A stretch of 64,000 bases of DNA from Candidatus Marinacidobacterales bacterium (GCA_965224085.1 CBDCYI010000009.1:288001-352000); one strand, 5' to 3'. Counted from the first letter of the stretch, positions 8,265 to 22,255 are shown. The notes: generated by a model not told the origin, from the sequence alone. Made by a program: numbers and translations.

Positions 8265-8427
8265 TAGTCCCCTGGAACAGAGGTTCGTGGCCTAAAGCTC
8301 GAGGTCATTTTGTGGGCTGGAAAGGCGTGACGACGAAGTCATATTGGGATATTTCGAGGAGAAACAACGCAGCCAGCGCGCAAAAGGGCCCGAGATTTAG
8401 GTTACGAATCTCTGTTCCAGGGGACTA
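8265..8427. mobile_element. MITE-like palindromic element (163 bp) with long imperfect terminal inverted repeats
   Basis: TAGTCCCCTGGAACAGAG... at the left end is the perfect reverse complement of ...CTCTGTTCCAGGGGACTA at the right end over 18 bp and stays complementary for about 55 bp. TA dinucleotides at both ends are a possible target duplication. No coding capacity. Confidence 0.7.
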
Positions 8428-9495
8428 GGCGTTGTGCACGTAGTTCGCGATGTGGTCGCCTACCTCTTCGGTCGAGCGACCTTTGCCTTGAAGCGCTAAA
8501 TCGGACGTCATGTAGCCTTTCCCGAGGGCGGACGCGATGCCGCGCTCGACGGTGCGTGCCTCTTCCTCTAGCTCGAAGGTATAGCGGAGCATCATGGCTA
8601 GCGACGCAATAGCGCCTATCGGATTCGCGAGGCCTTTTCCCACGATATCCGGCGCTGAACCGTGGACGGGCTCGAACAGGCCAACCGCTCCTCCGAGGCT
8701 CGCGGACGGAAGCATGCCGAGCGAGCCGGCGAGCATAGAGGCCTCATCGCTCAAGATGTCTCCGAAAAGATTCGCCGTGAGCAGCACGTCGATGTTGGCC
8801 GGTTTGGCGACGAGCTCCATCGCGGCGCGATCGACGAGCATGTGCTCGAGCGTGACGCCGGGGTAGTCCTTCGCGACCTCGGTAACGACTTCGCGCCACA
8901 GCTTCGACGTCTCGAGCACGTTCGCTTTATCCACCGAGGTCACATGCCGGCGTCTTCGCTTCGCAGCTTCGAACGCGATGCGCGCGACGCGGACGATCTC
9001 CTTCGTATGGTATGTCAGCGTGTTGACCGCCTGCCGATCCTGCCCCAAGCCCGAGATGCCACGAGGCTCGCCAAAGTACAGCCCTCCGGTGAGCTCACGC
9101 ACGATCAGAAGGTCCACGCCCTCGAGCGTTTCTGGCTTAAAGGGTGACGTCGGCGAGACGAATTGCGAGATGACGGGACGCAGATTCGCAAAGCTCTCGA
9201 TCAATCGGCGCAGCTCGAGTAGTGCGAGCTCCGGTCGCTCGTTCGGAGGTAAGTGGTCGTGCCTCGGGTCGCCGACCGCACCGAGAAAAATCGCGGGGGC
9301 GCTCGTGCACGCCTCGCGCGTCTCGTCCGGAAATCCTTTGCCGGCAGCGTCGTAGCCGGCCGAGCCGAACGGATAAGGCGTCGTGTCGCTCTCGTGGCCA
9401 AACTTGGACGCCACCGCGTCCAAGGTCTTCATCGCCTCCGCGACCACTTCGGGGCCAATGCCGTCGCCAGGCAGAACCGTGATCATCAGTTTCAT
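8425..9495 (-). CDS. leuB: 3-isopropylmalate dehydrogenase
   Basis: LPGDGIGPEV, RELTGGLYFG, SVDKANVL, NLFGDILSDEAS and EPVHGSAPDI. Confidence 0.95.
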   Translation of the reverse strand: MKLMITVLPGDGIGPEVVAEAMKTLDAVASKFGHESDTTPYPFGSAGYDAAGKGFPDETREACTSAPAIFLGAVGDPRHDHLPPNERPELALLELRRLIESFANLRPVISQFVSPTSPFKPETLEGVDLLIVRELTGGLYFGEPRGISGLGQDRQAVNTLTYHTKEIVRVARIAFEAAKRRRRHVTSVDKANVLETSKLWREVVTEVAKDYPGVTLEHMLVDRAAMELVAKPANIDVLLTANLFGDILSDEASMLAGSLGMLPSASLGGAVGLFEPVHGSAPDIVGKGLANPIGAIASLAMMLRYTFELEEEARTVERGIASALGKGYMTSDLALQGKGRSTEEVGDHIANYVHNA

Positions 9496-9565: not shown

Positions 9566-9822
9566 AATGAAGGCGGGGGGCGCCCGAAGGCGCCCCCCTA
9601 TGATTCCAAAAGAACTGTTGCCAAGGATTATTTATGTGGAGTTGTTTAGGACGAGGTAAATGAAAAAGCAGGATAAAGTTGCGGGTTCGGTCGATGGATG
9701 GATAAGACCCGAGCTATGAGACACAGGCCTTTTGCGGACCCCTAGCGAACTGCTCGTCATGGAATCAACAAAGCGAGATCACTTTTTACTGTCCGATTAA
9801 TACTAATGTCGTGTTTAGGTAC
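9566..9822 (-). ncRNA. Candidate small RNA or long structured leader of leuB (family unrecognised)
   Basis: AT-rich region with no convincing ORF, between a near-consensus sigma70 promoter and a terminator-like hairpin. Long-range inverted repeat TGATTCCA (9601-9608)/TGGAATCA (9760-9767). Confidence 0.4.
9575..9598 (-). terminator. GC-rich hairpin, probable intrinsic terminator
   Basis: On the minus strand GGGGGGCGCC-TTCG-GGCGCCCCCC forms a perfect 10-bp stem with a C(UUCG)G loop. The U tail is weak (GCCTTCATTT). Confidence 0.55.
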
Positions 9823-9828
9823 AGCAAT

Positions 9829-9856
9829 ACTATAGGCGGCTTCCCTTTGGTGTCAA
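9829..9856 (-). promoter_or_regulatory. Sigma70-type promoter
   Basis: Minus strand TTGACA (9856-9851), 16-nt spacer, TATAGT (9834-9829). Confidence 0.65.
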
Positions 9857-10216
9857 GACGAAAAAGAAGAGGCGGGACCAAACCACGCCCAATTGACTAT
9901 CGATGAACGGTTTATCCGACAGGCGTCATTTCATACCGTAGATTTATGTAGGCGCTAGATCTTCCTTCCAATAATCAGAACCCGACTCAAACGGATGGCG
10001 CTTGATCTTCATTCGGCTTTTCGCGTAGTATTAGTGGCAGAGTTCGGGCTAATGCTAGTCCGGGCACCACAACCGGCACATCCACAACTGAAATCACGAT
10101 TCTCATATCGCGATAGCTATCTATCGAGGGGATGAGGCGACTTTGTCGCTTCGTCGCGCTGCCGCCACCCAACATCGCAAGCGGCAGTGGTTCGAAATGT
10201 CGAAAGGAGCGGAATC

Positions 10217-11032
10217 GTGCAGGAGTTTCTAGTAGCGGTCGTGGCCTTTCCCACGATCGTGTTCACGTTCGGTCTCGCGGTCGCCCTCCTCTACTGGCTC
10301 GTCGTGATCTTCGGCGCGCTCGACCTGGACTTTCTCGACAGCGCGCTCGGTCTCGACAGCATGGATGCCGCTCTCGACGGAGCGCTCGAATCGATCGACG
10401 GGATGGCAGACGGGGCCGTCGAAGGTGTGGTGGAATCGATCGATGGTGCGGTCGACGGCGCGGCGGAAGGCGCAGCGGACGCCGCTGATTCGGGAGATAC
10501 GAGCGACGGGGCCCGGCAGGGCGCCCTTTCCGGGCTCTTGAACATGATGGGTGTTCGCGGCGTTCCCATCACGGTCGTTGCGAGCTTCGTGCTGCTCTGG
10601 GCATGGATTATCAGCATGGTCGGCTCCAAATTGCTGGGCGCGGCGGCGGCGACGTTCCTCGTCGGCGGCTTTCTCACAGGATCATCGGTCCTCGGTTCGT
10701 TGGTCCTTGCGGCGGTCACCGCTCGGCCTTTCCGGAAAATCTTCGTGACACCCTCTGCGCCCAGTCGCGTTTCGCTCGTCGGAAAAATCTGTATCGTGAC
10801 TTCCGCGAAAGTCGACGGTGAGTTCGGCCGCGCCGAGATCGATGACGGCGCGACCGGTTTCGTCGCCGAAGTGCGATGCCCGCAGGACAACCAATTGACA
10901 CGAGGCGCCAACGCGCTCGTGTATCGCTACGACCCGGCCGACGGCGTCTTTTTCATTGGACCCGTCGACGATGCCTTGGCTACAGCATCGAATGTGGTCG
11001 ATTCACAGTCTGGCTCGATAGGGGGAGGATAA
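10217..11032 (+). CDS. YqiJ/NfeD-like membrane protein with a C-terminal OB fold (flotillin partner)
   Basis: AAGGAG RBS then GTG 10217. N-terminal TM (FPTIVFT), acidic D/G/A-rich linker, GVPITVV TM pair, SLVGKIC..T...FGRAE OB-fold tail. Directly upstream of an SPFH gene. Confidence 0.75.
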   Translation: MQEFLVAVVAFPTIVFTFGLAVALLYWLVVIFGALDLDFLDSALGLDSMDAALDGALESIDGMADGAVEGVVESIDGAVDGAAEGAADAADSGDTSDGARQGALSGLLNMMGVRGVPITVVASFVLLWAWIISMVGSKLLGAAAATFLVGGFLTGSSVLGSLVLAAVTARPFRKIFVTPSAPSRVSLVGKICIVTSAKVDGEFGRAEIDDGATGFVAEVRCPQDNQLTRGANALVYRYDPADGVFFIGPVDDALATASNVVDSQSGSIGGG

Positions 11033-13081
11033 ATGTATTGGGTAATGGTCATTATCGCCGTCGGCGTGGGCGTGCTCATTCTGGGCATGGGCCTTTTGAT
11101 GCTCATCGCCAAGTTCTATCGCAAGGTAGAACAAGGCAAAGCGCTCGTCGTCAACAAGATGAAGCAAGAGCCTGAAGTCACGTTTACCGGCGCCACGGTG
11201 CTCCCCGTAATCCACAAGGCCGAGGTCATGGATATCTCGGTGAAGACACTCGAGATCGACCGGCGCGCGAAAGACGGACTGATCTGCCGTGACAACATTC
11301 GGGCCGACATCAAAGTCAACTTCTTCGTCCGCGTAAATAAACGCAAGGAAGATGTCATCAGAGTCGCGCAGTCCATCGGCTGCGCCCGCGCCTCATCTCC
11401 CGAAACGCTCGACGAGCTCTTCAGCGCCAAGTTCTCCGAAGCGCTGAAGACGGTCGGCAAGCAGCTCGACTTCGTCGACCTCTACACGAAGCGCGACGAA
11501 TTTCGCGACGCCATCATCCAGATCATCGGGCGCGACTTGAACGGCTACGCGCTCGAGGACGCGGCCATCGACTATCTCGAGCAGACCCCCCTCTCACATC
11601 TCGACCCGCAGAACATCCTCGACGCCCAAGGCATTCGCCGTATTACCGAGCTCACCGCGATCGAGCACATCCAAACGAACGAGTTCGAGAACAACGAGAA
11701 AAAAGCCATCACGAAACAGGACGTCGAGCGCGCAAAAGTCATCCTCGAGCTCGATCGCGAGCATGCGGACGCTGAGTCGAAGCAAAAGCGCGAGATCGAA
11801 TCGGTACGCGCGCGCGAATTGGCCGCGCTCCAGCAAGTCCAGGCGGAAGAGCGGCTCAAGTCCGAAACGGCGCGCATCAAGACGGACGAAGAAGTCCAGG
11901 TCGCCGAGGAGAACAAGAATCGCCAGGTCCAGGTTGCTGCCAAGAACCGCGAGCGCATTATTGGCGTCGAGACCGAGCGGGTCTTGAAAGACCGCCAGCT
12001 CGAACAGGTGGTCCGCGAACGTGAAGTCGAGCTCCAGCGCATCGACAAAGAGAAAGCGCTCGAAGTCGAGCGAAAAGAGATCCAGGACGTTATCCGCGAA
12101 CGCGTCGCTGTCGAGCGCACCGTTGTCGAGGAACAGGAGCGCATCAAAGAGCTCCAGGTCGTCGAGGAGGCCAAGCGCACCAAGCAGGCCACCATCATTA
12201 CGGCCGAGGCCGAAGCGGAAGAAGCCCTCGTCAAGGACATCAAAGCCGCCGAGGCCCAGGAGCAGGCTGCGAAGCACAAAGCCGTCGAGCGCATCACCCT
12301 CGCCGACGCCCAGCTCGAGGCCGCCGACCGCGACGCAAAAGCCAAGATCCGTCTCGCGGAAGGTACCCAGGCGGAAGCCGCAGCCGAAGGGCTCGCGGCC
12401 GCGAGGGTCAAAGAGGCCGACGCCGTCGCCTCCGAGAAGCACGGCCTCGCTGAAGTCCGGGTCCAGGAAGCGCAAGCGGGCGCTATCGAGCAAGTCGGCA
12501 CCGCGGAAGCGACCGTGGTTCGCGAGAAAGGCGTCGCCGAGGCGCACACCATCCAGCAGAAGTTCGGCGCTGAGGCGAAAGGCCTCGCGGAAAAAGCCGA
12601 GGCGATGAAAGCGCTCGACAAAGACAGCCGCCAGCACGAGGAGTACCGCATCCGCCTCGAGAACGAGCGCCTGCTCGGTCTCGAAGCGATCCAAGCGCGC
12701 GAAGCCGTCGCCGCGCACAAAGCCCAGGTCCTCTCCAAAGCGCTCGAGTCGGCGGATATCGACATCGTCGGCGGCGACGGTGTCTTTCTCGACCGCATGG
12801 TGAATTCCATCAGCATGGGCAAGGGCGTCGACGAGCTCGTCGATCAAAGCGACGTCATCTCCGGGCTCGCCAAAGACTATTTCAATGGCGACAAGAACAT
12901 CATCAAAGAGATCCGTCAGATCATGAAGGATTCCGGCATCGACGGAGGCATGCTCAAGGACATCACCATCGGGGCGCTTCTGACGAAGATCGCTACCGAT
13001 ATGGGAGGAGACGATCACGAAAAACTGAAGAAGCTTCAACGGCAAGCCAAAGCCTTGGGCATCGACGACGTTCGGCTATAA
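11033..13081 (+). CDS. Flotillin/SPFH (band 7) family protein, YqiK-like
   Basis: N-terminal TM, SPFH domain (GLICRDNIRADIKVNFFVRVN, NILDAQG) and a long EA-rich coiled coil. Confidence 0.85.
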   Translation: MYWVMVIIAVGVGVLILGMGLLMLIAKFYRKVEQGKALVVNKMKQEPEVTFTGATVLPVIHKAEVMDISVKTLEIDRRAKDGLICRDNIRADIKVNFFVRVNKRKEDVIRVAQSIGCARASSPETLDELFSAKFSEALKTVGKQLDFVDLYTKRDEFRDAIIQIIGRDLNGYALEDAAIDYLEQTPLSHLDPQNILDAQGIRRITELTAIEHIQTNEFENNEKKAITKQDVERAKVILELDREHADAESKQKREIESVRARELAALQQVQAEERLKSETARIKTDEEVQVAEENKNRQVQVAAKNRERIIGVETERVLKDRQLEQVVREREVELQRIDKEKALEVERKEIQDVIRERVAVERTVVEEQERIKELQVVEEAKRTKQATIITAEAEAEEALVKDIKAAEAQEQAAKHKAVERITLADAQLEAADRDAKAKIRLAEGTQAEAAAEGLAAARVKEADAVASEKHGLAEVRVQEAQAGAIEQVGTAEATVVREKGVAEAHTIQQKFGAEAKGLAEKAEAMKALDKDSRQHEEYRIRLENERLLGLEAIQAREAVAAHKAQVLSKALESADIDIVGGDGVFLDRMVNSISMGKGVDELVDQSDVISGLAKDYFNGDKNIIKEIRQIMKDSGIDGGMLKDITIGALLTKIATDMGGDDHEKLKKLQRQAKALGIDDVRL

Positions 13082-13099
13082 CGGAAGGCTCACGTAATC

Positions 13100-16000
13100 A
13101 TGAGCACGGACGTACAACAACAACCCGAGATCGAGCGCGGCACTTACGAGATCATCCGGGACCGCTTGCTCGGCCACGGCAAGACACTCGCCGAGAAAGC
13201 CGATGGACTCAACAGGAAACGCCTCGAGATCTTCGGAGGCACCGAGCTCGCGGTCCTGGGCAACGAGCGCATCCGGACCGAGAACAACTGCATCCCGCGC
13301 GACATCAAGGAGGTGGGTAACCACCTCCTGTTCGGCTATAACGTTTTCATCGGCCTCAAGCGCGAGACTCGCGTTGAGGACGTTTTCAGCCTTCACAGCT
13401 ACGAGAAGACGGAGGACGGCTTCGTTTTTCGCAAAGTCGAAAAAAACTCTCCCGACTACTTTCTCTCGGACGTGAAATTTCTAGAGGAGTTCCACGAGCT
13501 CTATCACTATTACAAGAACACCAAGCTCCTCCAGCTGAGACGGGTCAGCGAGAAGCTTCTCGCGGTATTCCAAATTGGCGAGAAGATCGAGGACGTGCGC
13601 GTGTTCCGCTGGGCCATCTCCACCGACGGCGCGGTTACCTATATCGACAACCGCGGCGAGCGCGACCACGTTTTCCCTCGGACCCATGACTTCGAATGGA
13701 CGCTCACAGCGCGTGAAGAGCACGTGCAGGGCCGTCACCCGCACGTCAACATTCTCGACGAAGTTTTCGTCGAGACCGTCGGCGGCGATCTCACGATCAA
13801 GGTCGAGAACAACACCGAAGACGGCCAGGGTATCTATCGCGAGCCGGTGCTCGACGCCGACCAATCTTTGGACGACGCGGAAGTCCACTACGCAGAAGTG
13901 GGCACGCTCATTCTTCTGAAGATGCTCCCCTACCGCGAAACGGATTACCGATATCTCGTCTTCAACACGCGCACCAATCACGTCGATCGCATCGACGCCA
14001 TCGGCCAATCCTGCGTACAGCTTCCCGAGGACCACGGCGTCATCTTTCCGGGCGGCTACTACCTGAAGAGCGGCCACACAAAGTCCTTCGAGCGCGATTT
14101 CCGCGGGATGGAGTTCCTGAGACGTCTGCGCTCCCCGAACGGCGAAGACGTCCTTTACGCGTTTCACGAGCGTGAATCTGGGCGCACGATCCTACTTCCG
14201 TACAACATGATCCGGAAGGAGGTCGACAACCCGCTCAATTGCCACGGCTTCAGCCTCTATCCCGACGGCACGCTCGTCGTGTTCCGCGCTGGCGACGACG
14301 AGCCCAAACGCGTCCATGGGATGCAAGTCTGGCGCACGCCCTTCTTGAGCGAAGAGGCGGTGCAGTCGCGGCCGCCCACCGGCTCGTTCCTCGAGAAAGT
14401 GGGCAATGCCGAGCTCGTGCGCGGCGTCTCCGACTGCTTGAGCATTCGCCGCATGGTCGACGAGCAGGAGCCGACGCGGCAGAAATACGAGGACCTCGTC
14501 GCGGCGGCGGCACGCGTCATCGACAGCTATTACTGGCTCGACAACCCCGAGATTGGAGACCTGCGCGAGCCGCTCCGGAACGTTCACGAGTCCGCCGAGA
14601 GCATCATCGACGAGTTCGAAAAAGTCGAAGCGCTAAGGGCGCAAGCGAGAAGGACTCTCGACGAGGCCGGCGAGAAGGTCCAGGAGATCTTCCGAACCAT
14701 TTATCCCGATTCCTGGACCTCGATCGACCAATATGTCGCCTGTCTCGCGAGCTTACGCTCGGCGCGCGGGCACCTCATTACGCTCCGCGAAACACGCTAT
14801 GTCGATCTCGCCCGAATCGACACGGTCGAAGCGGAGATTGTCGAGCGCTTCGATAATGTCAGCGAGCGCGCCGTCGAGTTTCTTCTGCAAGACGAAGCAC
14901 TACTTCCCTATCAAGAACGCGCGGGCGCGCTCGAGGACGGTGTTCCCGGCCTCTCGAAAGTTACCGAGGCGAACGCCCATCAAGACGCCCTCCAAGAGTT
15001 CGGCGACAGTCTCGATCTCTTGACCGATGTGGTCAGCTCGCTCGAGATCGACGACGCCACGGTCCGCACGCAGATTCTCGGGAACATCTCGGAGATCTTG
15101 GGAAGCCTCAACCGCGTCCGTGCGCTCATCACCAACCGGCGCAAAGAGCTTCTCGGCAAAGAAGGCATCGCTGAGTTCGGCGTGCAATTCCAGCTTTTGA
15201 GCCAAAGCGTAACGAGCGCTCTATCTCTCTCCGACACGCCCGAGAAATGTGACGAACAGCTCTCGAAGCTCATGCTCCAGCTCGAAGATCTGGAAACCCG
15301 TTTCTCCGAGTACGAAGAGTTCACGGACGAGCTCACGACCAAGCGCGAGGAAATCTACGAGGCGTTCAGCTCGAAGAAGCAGTCCCTTGTCGACCGGCGC
15401 CAGCGCCGCGCGCAAAACTTGATGCAGGCCGCCGAGCGTATTCTAGGAAGTGTGACGCGGCGCGCGGAGACGTTCGAGACCGCCGACGACCTGAACGCCT
15501 ATTTCGCTGCTGACGCGATGGTCGCCAAGCTCCGGAGCACGTCAAACAATTTGCGAGAGCTCGGCGACTCTGTCCATGCCGACGAGATCGACGGCCGACT
15601 CAAAGCCGCCAAAGAAGACGCCGCCCGCGGACTTCGCGACCGCCAGGAGATCTACGAGGACGGCGCCAACGTCATCAAGCTCGGCAGGCACCGCTTCAGC
15701 GTCAACACTCAGCCTCTCGAGCTCACCATGGTGCCTCGCGACGACGCCATGGCCTTTCATCTCACCGGCACCGGCTTCTACGAGCAGGTCGACGATGAGA
15801 CCTTCGGAAAAACGCAGGATTTCTGGTCGCAAGAGCTCGTTTCCGAAACGCGTTCAGTCTATCGGGGCGAATATCTGGCCTATTGCGTGCTCGAAGACGC
15901 AGAGCTCGGAGATTCCGAGTTGTCGCTCAAGAAGCTCCTCCAAGCCACCCGCGGCGAAGGGGCGCTTCTGGGCATCATACGCGACTATGCGGCTCTGAGA

Positions 16001-18472
16001 TATGACGAGGGGTATGAGCGCGGCCTCCACGACGCCGACGCGACGCTGATCTTGCAAAAGATCCTGGGCATGCACGAGACCGCGGATCTGCTTCGCTTCA
16101 CCCCGAACGCGCGCGCACTGGCTACCGTTTTCTGGGCGCTCTACGACGACCGGAAAAAGCGCGCGGCCTGGGAAAGCCAAGCTCGCAGCCTCGTCCGCCT
16201 CCGCACCCAATTCGAGCACACGGAGGCGATGACGGAGCTCGGTGGCGAGCTCAACGAAGCGATCGCGACCCATCTCGCCGAGATCGGGATCGATGTGCCG
16301 ACGCAGGCGTCCCGTCTAGCCGGCGCCTACCTGCTCGAAGAGATCGCGCGCGAGCCGCAGAAATTCGTCCTGAGCGCGGATGCAAACGAGCTCAAGCGCG
16401 CTTTCGAAAAGCACTTGCGTGAGTCCGGCGGCGACCGCGAGCTCGAACAGGACTTGCGCGCGCTCAGCGACACGCCCGTGCGCGCTTACGAGCTCACGGA
16501 GGCGTGGATGGCCGCCTTTCTCTCGAGCTCGGAAAACGGCGATCGCTTGGCTCGCTCTTCCCTCGAGGCCGTCGTCGCGCTTCTTTTCGAAGACAAAGTG
16601 AGCCGAGACACCTCGAGCGCGCAGTCCAAAGTCACGGTCGAGGGGCTCCTTGGCCAGCACCCCCGCATGCCGCAAGGCCGTATGGAGCTCCATCTAGACG
16701 AATTCCTCTCGCGGCTCGGCCATTTTCGACATCGACAAGTCAGAGGCTTCAGAGAGTTCCAAAAAGCCCGCCACGACGTGCTCGAGCACGAGCGTGAGAA
16801 TCTACGTCTCGACGAGTACAAGCCCAAGGTCATGTCGTCTTTCGTGCGCAACCGGCTCATCAACGACGTGTATCTACCGCTCATCGGCGACAACCTCGCG
16901 AAACAGATGGGGGCTCTCGGCGACGCCAAGCGCACCGACCTCATGGGGATGCTTCTCCTCATCTCACCTCCGGGCTACGGCAAGACGACTTTGATGGAGT
17001 ACCTCGCCAACCGGCTCGGCCTCGTCTTCATGAAGATTAACGGCCCCGCCCTCGGCCACTCGGTCACATCGCTAGATCCAGGCGAAGCACCGAACGCCAC
17101 CGCGCGCCAGGAGGTCAACAAGCTCAACCTCGCTTTCGAGATGGGCAACAACGTCCTTCTCTACATCGACGACATCCAGCACACCCATCCCGAATTTCTC
17201 CAGAAATTCATCTCGCTCTGCGACGCACAGCGAAAAGTGGAAGGTGTTTGGAAAGGTCGGACGCGCACTTACGATCTGCGCGGCAAGAAGTTCGTCGTGT
17301 GCATGGCGGGAAACCCTTACACGGAATCCGGCGAAAAATTCCAAATCCCAGACATGCTCGCGAACCGCGCCGATACCTACAATCTAGGCGACATCCTCGA
17401 AGGCAAAGACGACTTCTTCGCGCTTTCCTACATCGAGAACGCGCTCACGTCGAACGCCGTCCTCGCGCCCCTCACGACGCGCGAGCAAAGCGATATCGAG
17501 TTGCTCGTGCGCATGGCGAATGGCGAGGCGATTCAAGCGGATCAGTTGAAGCACGGCTACTCCGCCGTCGAGATCGGCGAGATCCAGTCCGTTTTGAAGA
17601 AGCTTCTCAAAGTCCAGCAGGTGCTCCTCGCGATCAACCAGCAATATATTCGCTCGGCGTCGCAAGAAGACGCCTATCGCACCGAGCCGCCTTTCAAGCT
17701 CCAGGGGAGCTACCGCAACATGAACAAGCTCGCTGAGAAGATCGTGGCCGCGATGAACGACGACGAGCTCGAAAGCCTCATCGACGACCACTATCTCGGC
17801 GAATCGCAGACTTTGACGACGGGCGCCGAAGAGAACCTTCTCAAGCTTGCCGAGATGCGCAGCCGGATGAGCGAGAGCCAGAAGGCACGCTGGGAGGAGA
17901 TCAAAAGCGGTTTCGTTCGAGTGCAACGCATGGGGGGCGGCGACGACGACCCCGCGACGAGGCTCACGGGACAGCTCAGCCTGGTCTCCGAGCATCTCGA
18001 AGACATCGGTCAGAGCATCGAGCGCGCCGCCTCGAGTGCTGCTTCTCGCCCGCAAGCGATCTCGGCGGATCCCGACCTCAGCGCGTTCACCGCGCGGGAC
18101 GTCGAGGTCAAGCTCGACCTCGCTCCCTATATCGACAAGCTCCACGAGCTTCTCGAGGCCTTCCAGAACGGGCAAACACAACTCGCCGCCGCACCGCAGA
18201 TCAAGGGCGAGGCCCAGGCGCCGCCAGCGGATTACGAGCTCATCTCACGCGAGTCCTACCTCATCGAAGGCACCCTCATCCCGTTGATGCGCTTCATGGC
18301 GCATCGCTTCCGGGGCTATCGCGGGGTGGACGACCCGAAAATCAAAGCGCTCATACAGAGACTCGAATATGTCGACGATCTCCAGGAGCTCGTCAACGCG
18401 CTCGAGAAAATCAACGTCTCCGCCCTCTCGAACATAACCGACGAAGAGGAGACGGACGAGGCCTCGACATGA
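13100..18472 (+). CDS. Large coiled-coil AAA+ ATPase (family usually auto-annotated 'DNA repair ATPase', DUF3686-like N-terminus)
   Basis: 1790 aa. Beta-rich N-terminal region, long helical middle, then Walker A SPPGYGKTT, Walker B LLYIDD, sensor AGNP and LANRAD. Confidence 0.75.
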   Translation: MSTDVQQQPEIERGTYEIIRDRLLGHGKTLAEKADGLNRKRLEIFGGTELAVLGNERIRTENNCIPRDIKEVGNHLLFGYNVFIGLKRETRVEDVFSLHSYEKTEDGFVFRKVEKNSPDYFLSDVKFLEEFHELYHYYKNTKLLQLRRVSEKLLAVFQIGEKIEDVRVFRWAISTDGAVTYIDNRGERDHVFPRTHDFEWTLTAREEHVQGRHPHVNILDEVFVETVGGDLTIKVENNTEDGQGIYREPVLDADQSLDDAEVHYAEVGTLILLKMLPYRETDYRYLVFNTRTNHVDRIDAIGQSCVQLPEDHGVIFPGGYYLKSGHTKSFERDFRGMEFLRRLRSPNGEDVLYAFHERESGRTILLPYNMIRKEVDNPLNCHGFSLYPDGTLVVFRAGDDEPKRVHGMQVWRTPFLSEEAVQSRPPTGSFLEKVGNAELVRGVSDCLSIRRMVDEQEPTRQKYEDLVAAAARVIDSYYWLDNPEIGDLREPLRNVHESAESIIDEFEKVEALRAQARRTLDEAGEKVQEIFRTIYPDSWTSIDQYVACLASLRSARGHLITLRETRYVDLARIDTVEAEIVERFDNVSERAVEFLLQDEALLPYQERAGALEDGVPGLSKVTEANAHQDALQEFGDSLDLLTDVVSSLEIDDATVRTQILGNISEILGSLNRVRALITNRRKELLGKEGIAEFGVQFQLLSQSVTSALSLSDTPEKCDEQLSKLMLQLEDLETRFSEYEEFTDELTTKREEIYEAFSSKKQSLVDRRQRRAQNLMQAAERILGSVTRRAETFETADDLNAYFAADAMVAKLRSTSNNLRELGDSVHADEIDGRLKAAKEDAARGLRDRQEIYEDGANVIKLGRHRFSVNTQPLELTMVPRDDAMAFHLTGTGFYEQVDDETFGKTQDFWSQELVSETRSVYRGEYLAYCVLEDAELGDSELSLKKLLQATRGEGALLGIIRDYAALRYDEGYERGLHDADATLILQKILGMHETADLLRFTPNARALATVFWALYDDRKKRAAWESQARSLVRLRTQFEHTEAMTELGGELNEAIATHLAEIGIDVPTQASRLAGAYLLEEIAREPQKFVLSADANELKRAFEKHLRESGGDRELEQDLRALSDTPVRAYELTEAWMAAFLSSSENGDRLARSSLEAVVALLFEDKVSRDTSSAQSKVTVEGLLGQHPRMPQGRMELHLDEFLSRLGHFRHRQVRGFREFQKARHDVLEHERENLRLDEYKPKVMSSFVRNRLINDVYLPLIGDNLAKQMGALGDAKRTDLMGMLLLISPPGYGKTTLMEYLANRLGLVFMKINGPALGHSVTSLDPGEAPNATARQEVNKLNLAFEMGNNVLLYIDDIQHTHPEFLQKFISLCDAQRKVEGVWKGRTRTYDLRGKKFVVCMAGNPYTESGEKFQIPDMLANRADTYNLGDILEGKDDFFALSYIENALTSNAVLAPLTTREQSDIELLVRMANGEAIQADQLKHGYSAVEIGEIQSVLKKLLKVQQVLLAINQQYIRSASQEDAYRTEPPFKLQGSYRNMNKLAEKIVAAMNDDELESLIDDHYLGESQTLTTGAEENLLKLAEMRSRMSESQKARWEEIKSGFVRVQRMGGGDDDPATRLTGQLSLVSEHLEDIGQSIERAASSAASRPQAISADPDLSAFTARDVEVKLDLAPYIDKLHELLEAFQNGQTQLAAAPQIKGEAQAPPADYELISRESYLIEGTLIPLMRFMAHRFRGYRGVDDPKIKALIQRLEYVDDLQELVNALEKINVSALSNITDEEETDEAST

Positions 18473-18536
18473 ACGCGCTAGACCTGCGCGCCATGTTACG
18501 ATTCCCAAAACCGGTTCTCACCGAAGGGAGTTCGTG

Positions 18537-19292
18537 ATGGGGTTATTCGAGCGGATCCGAGCGGTCTGGTACGCCATAATCAACAAATCCGTCACTGAGA
18601 TGGAGGACGCGCACGTGATCGCACTCGCGGAGCACAAGCTCCAGCAGGCCACCGAGCGACTGAAAGAGGCGCGCCAAGGCTTGATCAGCTATCAAGCACT
18701 CGTTTTGAAAGTCGAAGGGCAAGTCGGAAGCGAAAAGTCGCGCATCGCGAGCGTCACCGGGCAGATCAAGAACCACTTGAAGGCCAATCAGGAAGAGATG
18801 GCCGGCCAGCTCGCTCTCGAGCTCGCTCGGGTCAAAGGCGAGCTCGAAAGCAACACCGAGCAGCTCGCACAACATCGCGAGAGCTACGAGAACAACCTTC
18901 TGAAGATGAAAGCGGCGCTCAAGGACATCGAGACGGCCAAGCAGGACCTCGACAAGAAGAAAGCCGCGCTTCAGATGGAGAAGGCTTTGGCCGAAGTCTC
19001 CGAGACCGCCGGCGCGCTCAACACCCAGTTCGATGTTTCTTCCGACATCGGCTCGATCCTGAGCCGCGTCGACGACCAGATCAATAAAGCCAAAGCGCGC
19101 TCGAAGGTCGCCTCCGATCTGAGCGATCAAGGCATCGATCAGCTCAAAGCGAAGCAATCGGCAGACAAGGCCGAAGCTCAGGAGCTTCTCGCGCAGTTCA
19201 AGATCGAGCAGGGGCTCGCCGAGCCGTCTTCAGAAGCAAGTGAGAAAACTGTAGGACCGCAGAGAGAAGCCACGCCAGAGTCCGGTGAATAG
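18537..19292 (+). CDS. PspA/IM30 (Vipp1, ESCRT-III superfamily) protein
   Basis: Amphipathic N-terminal helix MGLFERIRAVWYAIINK, helical hairpin with EEMAGQLA, and C-terminal AQELLAQFK. About 250 aa, all coiled coil. GGGAG RBS. Confidence 0.75.
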   Translation: MGLFERIRAVWYAIINKSVTEMEDAHVIALAEHKLQQATERLKEARQGLISYQALVLKVEGQVGSEKSRIASVTGQIKNHLKANQEEMAGQLALELARVKGELESNTEQLAQHRESYENNLLKMKAALKDIETAKQDLDKKKAALQMEKALAEVSETAGALNTQFDVSSDIGSILSRVDDQINKAKARSKVASDLSDQGIDQLKAKQSADKAEAQELLAQFKIEQGLAEPSSEASEKTVGPQREATPESGE

Positions 19293-21006
19293 CCCTTTGG
19301 GAAGCGGCGCGCCCACTTGGGCGCGGGAGCTTGCCTCGAGCTATGTCAGTGGGGCTGCAAGCGTCTTCCTTCTCTATGGAAACGTCCACGACCTCGTTCC
19401 GGTCACGGACTCGGACGAGTTCATCTCGCTCGACGACTATCTCGCCACGCAGCTCTTCGGCCAACGGGACATCGTTCTCGCCTACGATCGCGGTAGCGGC
19501 ATCCGCTTTCTCGCTCCCGGGGATGCCGACCGTCGGGCGTCCATGCAAGAGGACTTTTACAAGACGCTCAAAGCCGTGGACTCGGTAAGCGGCACAAGCT
19601 TCGCGAGCTCGAGGCCTAAAGATCCCAAAGTCGTGTTCGAGCTCCTCGACCGCTACATCCTCCACAAGCTCGTCGAAACGCCTGCAGACGGCAATCGCAA
19701 GAGCCTCGCGATCGTGATCTGCTATGTCGAGACCATCACGCCGGCCGTCGATGGCTCGTGGCTCACGGGCGAGCTCGGCGCCAACCTCATCAAAGTGCTC
19801 AATTGGGCCAACGACCCTGGGATTCGAAGCGCTGATGTGACGCTTTGTCTCGTCACGGAGAACCTCGGCGACGTAAACCGCCGCCTCGTCGAGAACCCAT
19901 TCATCTCTAAAGTAGACGTCGAGCTCCCGGACGAGACGACGCGTGAGCGCTACGCGAGGCATTTGTTGAAAGACGCAGCAATGGCGAAGACGGTGGCCCG
20001 TGAAGGCAACGGGCTGACGCTCGTCGGTCTCGCACAGGCGGTCAGTGGCTCCGTCGAGCTCGCCAATTTGCAAGCGGCCAAAAAGGAGCTCATCGAGAAA
20101 CAGTGCTTCGGCCTCGTCGAGTTCGTTGCTCCGAGCTACGACCTCGACATGGTTGTCGCGCCCGAGGCAGTCAAAGACCGCCTCGAGCAAGACGTGTCGC
20201 TATTCAAGAAGGGACGGCTCGAAGCGCTCCCGATGGGCTATCTCCTCTGCGGGGTCATCGGCACCGGCAAGACATTTACGGCAACATGCTTTGCAGGAAG
20301 CCTCGGCATCCCAACGATCGTCTTCAAGAACCTCCGCAGCAAGTGGGTCGGAAGCTCCGAAGGCAATCTCCAAAAAGTGCTCTCGGTGATCAAAGCCCTC
20401 GGCCCCGTCGTCGTCGTCGTCGATGAAGCCGATGCCGCGCTGGGAAGCCGCGGGTCGAGCGGGGACAGCGGCACGTCGAGCCGCATGTTCGCGATGATCT
20501 CGTCACTCATGAGCGACACCGGTTACCGGGGGCGCATCCTGTGGATGCTCCTCACTTGCCGTCCTGACATGTTGCCCGTCGATTTGAAGCGGCAAGGTCG
20601 CTGCGAGGTCCACATCCCGCTCTTCCCGCCCGAGACTGAGAAGGCCCGCCACCAAATGTTTCTCGCGATGGCGCGCACAAACGGCGTCGCGATCGCTCCC
20701 AGCGACGTTCCCACCCTGCCGGAAGAGCTCTCGGGCGCGGACATCGAAAGTCTGCTCGTGCAATGCGTCCGCCGCGCCGCGATCGCGGGCGCTGCTTCGC
20801 TCTCCGCCGCGCATATCCGTGACACGCTTGCCCACTTTCGATCACCGGATTATGGTCTCGAGAAGGAGCTGCAGCAGCTCGTCGCCATCCGCGAGAGCAC
20901 CGACCCCAACTTCATCCCAAAGCGACTGCGAACGCGTTACGGAGCGCCGGACAAGGCGATAGCCCTCGAGCACCGCATTCAGGAGATCGCAGCACTTCTC
21001 CAATGA
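19285..21006 (+). CDS. Classical-clade AAA ATPase with a degenerate N-terminal AAA-like domain
   Basis: Walker A GVIGTGKT, pore loop SKWVGSSE, Walker B VVDEAD and SRH TCRPDMLPVDLKRQGR. Start overlaps the PspA-like stop. Confidence 0.85.
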   Translation: MNSPLGSGAPTWARELASSYVSGAASVFLLYGNVHDLVPVTDSDEFISLDDYLATQLFGQRDIVLAYDRGSGIRFLAPGDADRRASMQEDFYKTLKAVDSVSGTSFASSRPKDPKVVFELLDRYILHKLVETPADGNRKSLAIVICYVETITPAVDGSWLTGELGANLIKVLNWANDPGIRSADVTLCLVTENLGDVNRRLVENPFISKVDVELPDETTRERYARHLLKDAAMAKTVAREGNGLTLVGLAQAVSGSVELANLQAAKKELIEKQCFGLVEFVAPSYDLDMVVAPEAVKDRLEQDVSLFKKGRLEALPMGYLLCGVIGTGKTFTATCFAGSLGIPTIVFKNLRSKWVGSSEGNLQKVLSVIKALGPVVVVVDEADAALGSRGSSGDSGTSSRMFAMISSLMSDTGYRGRILWMLLTCRPDMLPVDLKRQGRCEVHIPLFPPETEKARHQMFLAMARTNGVAIAPSDVPTLPEELSGADIESLLVQCVRRAAIAGAASLSAAHIRDTLAHFRSPDYGLEKELQQLVAIRESTDPNFIPKRLRTRYGAPDKAIALEHRIQEIAALLQ

Positions 21007-21512
21007 AAGACGGCCTCGTTCGCAGACAAGTCAAGCGCATCGGCCTCGGCGTCTTCCACGCGCGTCTGTTTCTTCACCGCCTTCAGGCCGACACGCGTTA
21101 CGAGCTCGGCGGCGAGTGCATCCGCTGCGGCAAATGTTGCTTGGAGCCAGGAATTCAAGTCGGCCGCATCGCTTGGTACCTCCCCGGCTGCCGGCGGGTC
21201 TTTCTCTGGTGGCACCGAGTTGTCAACGGCTTCACGCTCAAGGAGGCCCGGCGGGAAGACCGCGTGTTCATTTTTGAGTGCAGCCATTTCGACTGGGCGT
21301 CGCGGAGCTGCGACAGCTACCACTCCCGGCCCGGAATGTGCCGCGACTACCCGCGCCTGTTCCTCGAACAGGCCAACCCCGAGTTTTTCGACGAGTGCGG
21401 TTTCAAAGCGCTCGCTCGAGGCCGGGACAGCCTCATCCAAATTCTCGAGAAAGAATCTCTTACGCCGCAGCAGCTGGCCAAGCTGAAAAAAGGCCTTTAT
21501 CTCGAAGATTGA
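21003..21512 (+). CDS. YkgJ-family CxxCxxCC cysteine-cluster protein
   Basis: CIRCGKCC and C.HF......C..Y..RP.MCRDYP. ATGA overlap with the AAA gene. Confidence 0.8.
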   Translation: MKDGLVRRQVKRIGLGVFHARLFLHRLQADTRYELGGECIRCGKCCLEPGIQVGRIAWYLPGCRRVFLWWHRVVNGFTLKEARREDRVFIFECSHFDWASRSCDSYHSRPGMCRDYPRLFLEQANPEFFDECGFKALARGRDSLIQILEKESLTPQQLAKLKKGLYLED

Positions 21513-21622
21513 GATGAAAGGCTTGCTGCCGCGATTCGACTCGGTTACATTAGAGGTTGAGCCCTCTCCACACACAAGAAAGCCAAAGCTCTGCCGGCCT
21601 TGCTTAGGGGTGTCGGAACCGC

Positions 21623-22255
21623 ATGCGTAGACTGAAGATCCGGAGTTATCTCGCCACCGGTCTACTAGTCTGGATTCCGCTCGCCGTGACCCTCTTCGTC
21701 CTCCGGGTGCTGATAAATTTGATGGATCAGTCCCTCCTGCTGATCCCGCCGTCGTTGCGTCCTGAGAATCTATTGGGGTTCAGCATCCCGGGCCTGGGCG
21801 TCATTCTCACGTTCACGCTCGTCACCGTGACCGGTTTTTTGGCCGCGAACTTTCTCGGCAAACGGCTATTGGCGACCTCGGAAGGGCTTCTCGCACGTAT
21901 CCCGCTTGTGAGCTGGGTCTATTCCGGCGTAAAGAAGGTGGCGGAAACGCTCTTGTCGCCGACGAGCGAGTCGTTTCGCAAAGTGCTCCTGATGGAGTAC
22001 CCTCGCAAAGGCATCTGGAGCGTCTGCTTTCAAACGTCGAGCGAGCTTGGCGAGATACAGATTCGTACGGGGAAGGAAGTGCTCTGCGTGTTCGTCCCCA
22101 CGACCCCGAACCCCACCTCTGGTTTCGTCATTTTCGTTCCCCGCGATGAGGTCATCGAGCTCGATATGACGGTCGACCAAGCATTGAGGATGATCATCTC
22201 GCTCGGCGTCGTGGTTCCCGAGTGGCGCCGCCGCGAGCTCATGCCGGTAGGTTGA
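21623..22255 (+). CDS. DUF502 membrane protein
   Basis: Two TM helices, RIPLV..VY, EYPRKG, FVPTTPNPTSGF and IISLG. Confidence 0.9.
   Translation: MRRLKIRSYLATGLLVWIPLAVTLFVLRVLINLMDQSLLLIPPSLRPENLLGFSIPGLGVILTFTLVTVTGFLAANFLGKRLLATSEGLLARIPLVSWVYSGVKKVAETLLSPTSESFRKVLLMEYPRKGIWSVCFQTSSELGEIQIRTGKEVLCVFVPTTPNPTSGFVIFVPRDEVIELDMTVDQALRMIISLGVVVPEWRRRELMPVG

Follow-up and report, generated by a model that had tools for sequence, protein, structure and literature searches.

Organization of the pspA-ATPase locus

We analyzed a 64,000-nucleotide (nt) stretch of the genome of Candidatus Marinacidobacterales bacterium (GCA_965224085.1, CBDCYI010000009.1:288001-352000), hereafter the window, and focused on two overlapping plus-strand genes that together form a PspA/ATPase dyad. 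The first, a pspA-like gene with an ATG start (18537..19292, +), encodes a 251-amino-acid (aa) divergent paralogue of PspA/IM30, a family of the ESCRT-III superfamily. The second (19285..21006, +) starts with GTG and encodes a 573-aa tandem AAA+ ATPase composed of a degenerate first AAA domain (D1), a classical second one (D2), and conserved C-terminal helices. Sequence comparison indicates that this is a real, conserved, and functionally linked gene pair of an already published kind, with a predicted function.

An initial annotation of this DNA had proposed that the AAA start (19285) overlaps the pspA-like stop (19292), and the open reading frames (ORFs) bear this out: the GTG start codon and the TAG stop codon share an 8-nt overlap, GTGAATAG (19285..19292, +). 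The ATPase might alternatively start at an in-frame TTG at 19297 (residue 5), and an ATG at the aligned position is the ATPase start in three relatives (L001, L105, and L106); the GTG with the identical 8-nt overlap recurs in four closer relatives (L101-L104). Because both candidate starts lie no more than 8 nt from the pspA stop, tight coupling of the two genes holds in either case. Upstream, an in-frame GTG at 18534 lies ahead of the pspA-like ATG at 18537, and a Shine-Dalgarno-like GAAGGGA (18523..18529, +), 7 nt before that ATG, is kept in the close relatives aligned.

Two genomes show interrupted copies at loci L096, L099, and L106. At G018:C14:108794-111240, four in-frame TGA codons occur in the PspA copy, and the ATPase spreads over three frames; at G005:C24:187667-188414, PspA is divided between two frames. 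Decay of the copies or errors of assembly may account for this.

A divergent PspA with an ESCRT-III-type predicted fold

The PspA-like protein matches PF04012 (PspA_IM30) at E 2.4e-11 and 44.1 bits, against a gathering cut-off of 33.9, over profile positions 1-218 of 220, and a genome-wide search repeats the same result for the gene at 18537-19292. Its sequence matches in the PDB are Vipp1 chains (E 1e-4). The AlphaFold2 (AF2) model shows a helical hairpin spanning residues 3-82 and 86-156 (predicted local distance difference test, pLDDT, 79-94) and a C-terminal helix at residues 199-224; the N-terminal amphipathic helix, long hairpin, and further C-terminal helix that define an ESCRT-III-type fold are thus all present in the model. 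The top Foldseek matches are Vipp1 structures, but at E 2.5e-3 and a TM-score of about 0.5.

The C-terminal helix (19131..19208, +; pLDDT ~67-77), which includes AQELLAQFKIEQ, falls inside the end of the Pfam PspA model and aligns with the ELAALK-type helix of Vipp1; judged by this alignment, it is the general PspA/Vipp1 C-terminal helix. Across 33 AAA-linked PspAs, A214, L218, and G226 are invariant and F221 is nearly so. Residues 231-251 have pLDDT values below 50 in the AF2 model and are predicted to form a disordered tail, so that the earlier description of a short C-terminal helix followed by a disordered tail agrees with the model.

The genome encodes a second, canonical PspA outside the window (G000:C9:521089-521772, L194), with 233 aa and 133 bits on PF04012. 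Within this genome, the AAA-linked copy (44 bits) is the divergent one. In several Planctomycetota, the AAA-linked copy is the sole PspA match in the genome.

A tandem AAA+ ATPase with a degenerate first domain

Pfam matches on the ATPase are limited to PF00004 and AAA_22, the AAA match covering residues 320-445 (E 1.5e-20). This match falls in D2 (20152..20844, +), a classical AAA cassette that is predicted to be active: it carries the Walker A motif GVIGTGKT (residues 323-330; 20251-20274), pore loop 1 SKWVGSSE (residues 352-359; 20338-20361), a Walker B motif ending in DE at residues 380-381 (20410-20427, +), and a second region of homology (SRH) that ends in KRQGR at residues 435-439 and includes R426, R436, and R439 (20560-20601, +). 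Walker A, Walker B, pore-loop G356, and the three arginines are invariant among 12 homologues sharing 27-44% identity with the window protein. The aromatic pore loop and the KRQGR ending named in the initial annotation are thus both found.

D1 (residues ~10-255; 19312..20049, +) reads as a pseudo-ATPase domain, with an AAA alpha/beta domain and a helical lid recognizable from the order of strands and helices. By motif reading, GNVHD (residues 32-36; 19378-19392, +) occupies the place of the P-loop, and N33 and D36 are invariant in the same 12 homologues. The suggestion that a degenerate N-terminal AAA-like domain replaces a MIT domain accords with this fold and with the absence of a Pfam MIT match. 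Residues 520-573 form the conserved C-terminal helices of the family. Sequence and Pfam scans of the ATPase revealed no transmembrane (TM) segment and no protease domain.

The AF2 model of the ATPase, built with 13 homologues, has a mean pLDDT of 82.4 and a predicted TM-score (pTM) of 0.76. Foldseek aligned the whole model over 547-618 columns with tandem Cdc48/p97, AFG2/Drg1, and Rix7 (E ~5e-19, TM-score 0.41-0.55). A second search, independent of Foldseek, compared the model all-against-representatives with VIA-align and ranked matches by Z score. The two-domain alignments span 430-470 residues and include p97 (Z 20.9; 432 aligned; root-mean-square deviation, rmsd, 8.3), Rix7 (Z 20.3; 441 aligned; rmsd 5.7), VAT (Z 19.8; 458 aligned; rmsd 7.4), NVL (Z 19.3), and Pex1/6 (Z 18.7). 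Matches confined to D2 comprise FtsH (Z 20.3), spastin (19.6), Vps4 (18.4-19.5), ATAD1 (17.4), and Msp1 (15.9). An ESM Atlas search with D1 returned unnamed clusters only.

The ATPase family comprises 622 representatives of 50% identity clusters at E <=1e-30. Four longer members of 818-856 aa (P0127, P0143, P0149, and P0157) carry an extra N-terminal pseudo-ATPase copy rather than a fused PspA, visible as a second GN.HD-type segment, and would thus possess three AAA-like domains of which the last alone is predicted to be active.

Placement of the ATPase among AAA+ families

By sequence, D2 is closest to the D2 domains of VAT, Cdc48, and AFG2 in the PDB (E 7e-30 to 1e-24), and the best 60 distinct PDB sequences for the ATPase include no Vps4 chain. 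NCBIfam models give 58.8 bits for CDC48, 49.6 for PAN, 48 for IteA, 38.8 for FtsH, and 29.4 for CdvC, all far under their cut-offs (802.65 for CDC48 TIGR01243, 650 for CdvC NF041006, and 510 for IteA NF042959). Both the ranking of model scores and that of PDB matches point away from Vps4. On this sequence evidence, the protein is a Cdc48/p97/Rix7-like tandem AAA with a dead D1 and not a member of the Vps4 family. The low family scores, together with the dead D1, the lack of an N domain, and the distinctive C-terminal helices, argue for an ATPase family of its own, of the Cdc48-style type II AAA build. The label Vps4/Cdc48-type in the initial annotation therefore holds for its second half, given the Cdc48-like tandem fold, and fails for Vps4, since the protein has no MIT domain, no Vps4_C domain, and a CdvC score of 29.4 bits against a cut-off of 650.

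Comparison with individual systems sharpens this placement. The tandem D1-D2 build is shared with Cdc48/p97/VAT, Rix7/NVL, AFG2, and Pex1/6, the best sequence similarity lying in D2, where the aligned pore loop is identical to that of VAT D2. Unlike Cdc48/p97/VAT, however, the ATPase lacks the N-terminal double-psi-barrel domain for substrates and adaptors, for which there is no room because D1 starts at about residue 10, and its D1 has no P-loop. The likeness to Vps4/CdvC consists in an AAA+ gene that also sits beside an ESCRT-III-superfamily gene and in a D2 with the classical AAA fold and an aromatic pore loop (Vps4 Z 18.4-19.5); the differences are two AAA cassettes instead of one and the absence of Pfam MIT and Vps4_C matches. 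From the PspF-type bacterial enhancer-binding proteins (bEBPs), the ATPase differs in having no Sigma54_activat or helix-turn-helix match in Pfam.

The family scores also bear on a reading of the pair as an anti-phage or abortive-infection module with the ATPase as an IetA/IteA-like sensor or effector. The ATPase does match the PADLOC IetA model (E 1.9e-14, 51.9 bits) and the NCBIfam IteA model (48 bits), but these scores are no better than the generic CDC48 similarity (58.8 bits), and the latter lies far under the IteA cut-off of 510. The neighbors include no IetS-type protease partner, the partners are membrane-homeostasis proteins, and relatives retain a stable chromosomal synteny running from leuB to DUF502. 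Given generic scores and a chromosomal, membrane-related context, we rejected the defence module as extremely improbable.

Conservation of the gene pair across genomes

To place the dyad in a broader genomic context, we scanned a genome collection with the ATPase family alignment and obtained 80 loci, of which those with at least 6 kb upstream and at least 3 kb downstream were counted as having full flanks. A same-strand PspA of the window type is present at 67 of the 80 loci, and 12 of the 13 loci without it end at a contig break. Among the full-flank loci, 37 of 38 carry PspA, which lies directly upstream of the ATPase gene in 25 and 4.2-4.7 kb upstream in 12; the exception is L046. A metagenome scan seeded by distant family members yielded another 80 loci, mostly on short contigs, with PspA beside the ATPase at 31 of them and at 18 of the 20 with full flanks. 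The hosts of the pair include Acidobacteriota, Planctomycetota, Gemmatimonadota, Myxococcota, and others.

The pair persists across several gene orders: adjacent, 4.2-4.7 kb apart, or with PspA downstream. The pairing of the two genes is far beyond chance, and the scenario raised in the initial annotation, of AAA homologues that mostly lack PspA neighbors, is not what the full-flank loci display (PspA at 37/38 and 18/20).

The phyletic pattern is similar. Among 41 genomes, comprising the window's own and 40 relatives, the ATPase occurs in 17 and the PspA variant in 16; PspA is found in 16 of the 17 ATPase-positive and in none of the 24 ATPase-negative genomes, although these genomes are kin, so their co-occurrence is no independent test. 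Taken at the sequence level, synteny conserved across phyla, phyletic co-occurrence, and the tail motif described below lend strong support to a functional link of the ATPase with the PspA paralogue.

Layouts around the pair differ among lineages. In the Acidobacteriota/Gemmatimonadota order represented by L002, PspA is followed by an OmpA-domain binding protein, an ABC permease, an ABC ATPase, a membrane-anchored coiled-coil protein of ~280 aa, and the tandem AAA. Planctomycetota have the PspA and AAA genes side by side, the coiled-coil membrane protein lying ~4-6 kb downstream. This protein combines a coiled coil with a TM segment at its N-terminus (9038-9877 in L002; other loci contain ~100 more such ORFs). 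In Planctomycetota, Gemmatimonadota, and other Acidobacteriota it accompanies the pair almost constantly as a third partner, and its gene either immediately precedes that of the ATPase or follows it by 4-6 kb. A search of the window's genome with one query did not find it, and the window-clade loci contain neither a transporter gene nor a TM-coiled-coil gene.

A conserved motif in the PspA tail

Within the predicted disordered tail of the window PspA lies K-T-V-G-P (residues 237-241; 19245..19259, +), a candidate docking or engagement motif for the ATPase. Invariant positions across the 33 AAA-linked PspAs, which come from several phyla, are G226, P230, K237, and G240, and P241 comes close to invariance. 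The general form [KR]-x-[LMIV]-G-P occurs within the last 30 residues of 59 of 73 proteins in the close set and 29 of 31 in the distant metagenome set, against expectations of 0.3 and 0.1 from shuffled tails; elsewhere in the same proteins it occurs 0 times in either set. A longer tail pattern, G-[LIVM]-x2-P ... K-x-[LV]-G, is found in 71 of 73 proteins of the close set and in none of the 31 of the distant metagenome set.

Both non-AAA-linked PspA paralogues examined (2/2), including the canonical copy of the same genome, stop directly behind the helix and have no such motif. In the window clade, the other recurrent partners (the ABC transporter and TM-Snf7) have been lost and the tail motif has been kept. 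Compared with the published accounts cited here, the [KR]-x-hydrophobic-G-P tail motif of AAA-linked PspAs appears to be new.

When the full ATPase was co-folded with PspA residues 190-251, the score was 0.60, against 0.01 for the best of three controls, and the verdict was weak support. Runs agree in at least 90% of contacts, and the partner pLDDT is at least 68. In calibration, 116 of the 157 solved complexes attained the mark, as did 2 of the 215 mismatched pairs; both of those pairs and only 18 of the 157 complexes scored 0.60 or less. These counts hold only roughly, because our own alignments were used.

Proposed mechanism and alternatives

We propose that the dyad is a cognate pair of polymer and motor, in which the ATPase docks on the PspA tail motif, threads PspA via the D2 pore, and extracts subunits; we consider this about an even call. 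The divergent PspA/IM30 would polymerize on the inner face of the membrane, and a dedicated hexameric AAA+ motor would remodel or disassemble the resulting polymer. The D1 ring, which appears to have lost nucleotide binding, would probably serve as a scaffold or docking ring, and the D2 ring appears to keep what a working motor would use: Walker A and B, both arginine fingers, and the aromatic K-W-V-G pore loop. In sequence, the motor would recognize [KR]-x-hydrophobic-G-P in the flexible C-terminal tail of PspA, feed that tail into the D2 pore, and then pull subunits from the polymer at the expense of ATP, leading to PspA recycling or membrane remodeling. Such action would be functionally analogous to that of Vps4 on ESCRT-III without the motor being Vps4. 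The dyad probably cooperates with the SPFH/flotillin and DUF3686 module encoded just upstream, at stressed patches of the membrane.

Where the initial annotation had suggested a bacterial ESCRT-III/Vps4 analogue, the functional link between PspA and the ATPase stands on synteny, co-occurrence, and the tail motif; binding of the two proteins and disassembly by tail threading are steps that we infer. A wider reading would make the system the bacterial counterpart of ESCRT-III/Vps4: a dead-D1 Cdc48-type AAA that threads PspA via its tail motif, parallels the Cdc48-to-Vps4 transition outlined by Makarova et al. (2024), and together with flotillin and DUF3686 constitutes a two-motor membrane-repair operon. 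In all its parts, this reading is tentative and somewhat doubtful.

Several observations weigh against the polymer-motor reading. The Z scores of FtsH, spastin, and Vps4 differ by no more than about 1-2 units, and the D2 fold therefore does not tell them apart. Three full-flank loci, and only these, carry the ATPase with no detectable PspA: L046 (Pirellulales), where a 308-aa ORF directly upstream of the ATPase gene has no family match and no similarity to the PspA profile; L147; and L190, whose neighbors are unrelated (STAND/TPR, ADH, peptidase S66, and RecG). Genome G016 has the ATPase and no PspA match at E 1e-15. No PspA-ATPase fusion was present among the five matches of a search for longer proteins, which is weak evidence, and the co-fold of the ATPase with the PspA tail, beyond its weak support, returned no interface. 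PspF binding or Hsp70 can likewise control PspA/Vipp1 polymers, and neither involves threading. We found no experimental study of any member of the ATPase family in the full-text literature, and no RNA sequencing run containing the locus is listed. In most other lineages, moreover, the ATPase gene directly follows the TM-coiled-coil gene and not pspA, so that the actual substrate in those lineages could be this protein or a client in the membrane.

A different role for PspA may also be considered. PspA, or elsewhere the TM-Snf7-like protein, may be an adaptor or stress sensor that recruits or gates the ATPase, whose real substrates would be other proteins, such as damaged or mislocalized membrane proteins, as for Cdc48, Msp1, and FtsH, with PspA itself not threaded. 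D2 matches the membrane-protein extractors and FtsH (FtsH Z 20.3, ATAD1 17.4, Msp1 15.9) as well as it does Vps4, and the tail motif could serve recruitment only. The operon of most phyla adds an OmpA-tethered binding protein, a permease, an ABC ATPase, and a membrane-anchored coiled-coil protein, and the dyad of the window lies behind an SPFH/flotillin module; flotillin/SPFH scaffolds corral membrane proteins. Yet PspA alone is conserved across all layouts, and no candidate client is. The window clade lacks the transporter and the TM protein but has kept PspA, its tail motif, and the ATPase, which itself has no transmembrane segment or protease domain. We regard the adaptor role as rather doubtful.

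A further alternative does without threading. The ATPase might be a holdase or assembly chaperone, or be regulated by PspA in the manner of PspF, ATP setting the balance of soluble and membrane-released PspA without processive unfolding. A single protomer already reaches 0.60 with the tail (weak; best control 0.01), which suggests docking outside the pore, and the pseudo-ATPase D1 could be a static binding platform; PspA is also described as binding and inhibiting the AAA+ domain of PspF (PMC7619361). These points are countered by the invariant aromatic pore loop and both invariant arginine fingers, which are typical of translocating classical AAA motors, and by the absence of any sigma-54 activator or DNA-binding domain in Pfam. 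We judge this alternative quite unlikely.

Relation to described systems

The proposed polymer-motor pair has precedents in the literature. Ravi et al. (2024, mSystems, PMC11237479) describe an "inactive classical AAA + classical AAA" arrangement beside PspA, compare it with Snf7/Vps4, and put forward the hypothesis of an ATP-dependent membrane remodeling comparable to that system. The dyad and its ESCRT-III/Vps4 parallel are thus already published and not new. In its described layout, with PspA adjoining a two-domain AAA+ protein whose N-terminal copy is inactive, that dyad matches the one in the window. The long form given in the same paper, PspA / PBPB-OmpA / permease / ABC ATPase / TM-Snf7 / tandem AAA, is reproduced gene for gene by L002-type loci, and the window clade differs from it in lacking the transporter and TM-Snf7 genes. 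In a single-sequence hhalign comparison, the TM-coiled-coil protein P0121 reached 1.5% against the PspA profile, so the "divergent Snf7" nature described by Ravi et al. was not reproduced.

Ravi et al. (PMC11237479) further describe an operon of flotillin, a YqiJ-type protein, and a giant AAA+ protein that is linked to PspA-family proteins. The genes at 10187-18472 of the window form the same triad as the flotillin / YqiJ-type / DUF3686 operons of that account and of the Pseudomonas aeruginosa bac cluster (PMC10948618). The PspA differs: the one in the window is of the tandem-AAA-linked type, whereas the operons described there carry CesT/Tir-PspA in some bacteria, and Pfam and NCBIfam scans of the cluster genes revealed no CesT/Tir-type chaperone. 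The joining of an AAA-linked PspA with a flotillin/DUF3686 module thus unites two separately described PspA contexts in one cluster.

Recent reviews, including one from 2025 (PMC7619361; PMC10936438), state that bacteria appear to lack a Vps4-like ATPase and that how PspA polymers are regulated is unexplained. Makarova et al. (2024, PMC10936438) describe systems of Vps4 and ESCRT-III as found only in archaea and eukaryotes and derive Vps4 from Cdc48 by the loss of one ATPase domain. The statement in the initial annotation that model bacterial PspA/Vipp1 has no known dedicated disassembly ATPase needs a correction, in that disassembly of Vipp1 by Hsp70/CDJ2 chaperones is known (PMC13051332). 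Hsp70B-CDJ2-CGE1 and cpHsc70 acting on VIPP1, and PspF with PspA in Escherichia coli, are described as ATP-dependent partners that govern the oligomeric state of a PspA-family protein, partly via its C-terminal region (PMC13051332, PMC7619361). Their ATPases nevertheless belong to unrelated families (Hsp70 and bEBP), and neither system is a dedicated dyad with a classical AAA unfoldase. With ESCRT-III, the PspA of the window shares a flexible C-terminal tail that bears a short conserved motif, although this motif is no MIT-interacting helix.

Because the idea has been published, the value of the present analysis lies in sharper, testable detail rather than in discovery. The compact two-gene PspA/tandem-AAA arrangement, free of transporter genes, is a convenient test object for ATP-driven ESCRT-III disassembly in bacteria, and it brings a defined candidate recognition motif and clear mutant predictions. 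If the proposal is correct, the build of one dead and one live ring would represent a living parallel of the Cdc48-to-Vps4 transition.

Genomic neighborhood and history of the dyad

Upstream of pspA in the window lies a plus-strand cluster of three genes. At its head, a small multi-TM protein of 281 aa (10187..11032, +) has no significant Pfam match and is kept with the cluster in five relatives; it stands in the place of the YqiJ/NfeD-type flotillin partners, a label given by position only. The second gene (11033..13081, +) encodes a flotillin-like protein of 682 aa with a TM segment, an SPFH/Band-7 domain, and a long coiled coil. Its residues 1-230 match Band_7 (E 1.2e-11); a whole-length Pfam scan gave no match, the Flot domain at E 0.74 is not significant, and a PDB sequence search with this protein found no match. 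The third (13100..18472, +) encodes a giant AAA+ protein of 1790 aa with DUF3686 (E 8e-212), DUF7902, and AAA/AAA_5 at residues 1285-1410. DUF3686 occurs in 10 of the 41 genomes and, wherever contigs allow the check, lies beside the dyad and nowhere else.

The order leuB, 281-aa multi-TM protein, SPFH/Band-7 coiled-coil protein, 1790-aa DUF3686 AAA+ protein, PspA, and tandem AAA is shared by the window and five relatives (G001, G002, G003, G010, and G012). In G005 and L001, leuB is followed by PspA, the tandem AAA, CxxCxxCC, and DUF502, with no flotillin module at the corresponding upstream site.

A quick maximum-likelihood tree of 83 ATPases, with midpoint rooting and support from the Shimodaira-Hasegawa-like approximate likelihood ratio test (SH-aLRT) only, unites the eight window-clade rows in a supported group (99). 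The ABC-type L002 (98) and L052 (95, on a long branch) are its successive sisters, and these nearest outgroups carry the long layout of Ravi et al. On this tree, the flotillin-module label needs two changes; with the root not secured, the simplest reading would be a single gain of the module after loss of the transporter genes and one later loss. Set beside the published layouts, the loss of the ABC-transporter and TM-Snf7 partners in the window lineage, together with a dyad directly behind an SPFH/flotillin-DUF3686 module, appears to be new.

Between the DUF3686 gene and pspA lies an extended -10-like element, TGTTACGAT (18494..18502, +); the DUF3686 stop codon lies 22 nt upstream of it and the pspA ATG 34 nt downstream. 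All 8 aligned upstream regions preserve the -10-like hexamer, and 7 of them also the preceding TG; the hexamer reads TACGAT in six, TAGGAT in G010, and TACAAT in G012, the one without TG. Both relatives that lack the upstream flotillin module retain the element, a pattern that fits an ancestral dyad promoter surviving insertion of the module. The suggestion that this element gives the dyad its own promoter thus gains from conservation of the hexamer (8/8), but it was not called by a generic sigma-70 two-hexamer scan, which reported no plus-strand promoter upstream of pspA because no -35 match is present. A scan of the 61-nt DUF3686-pspA gap found no plus-strand terminator, so read-through from the DUF3686 gene is also possible. 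As an element upstream of pspA, the conserved -10-like sequence appears to be new with respect to the sources cited.

Downstream of the dyad, a CxxCxxCC-domain gene (21003..21512, +) overlaps the AAA stop with its ATG by 4 nt (ATGA). The CxxCxxCC protein is putatively Zn/Fe-binding, and its gene is followed by one for a DUF502 membrane protein (window 21003-22255). Both genes follow the dyad in the window and four relatives; the stretch of G012 examined shows neither. The AAA-CxxC-DUF502 order is kept in close relatives with or without the flotillin module and not in other phyla, and the two genes could be operon members or reflect plain vertical synteny.

At the other end of the cluster, leuB (8425-9495, minus strand) has an upstream near-consensus promoter-like site consisting of TTGACA, 16 nt, and TATAGT (window 9575-9856, minus). 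A 10-bp all-GC hairpin with a T-rich tail lies between that site and the leuB start codon and could be a leader or attenuator for leucine biosynthesis.

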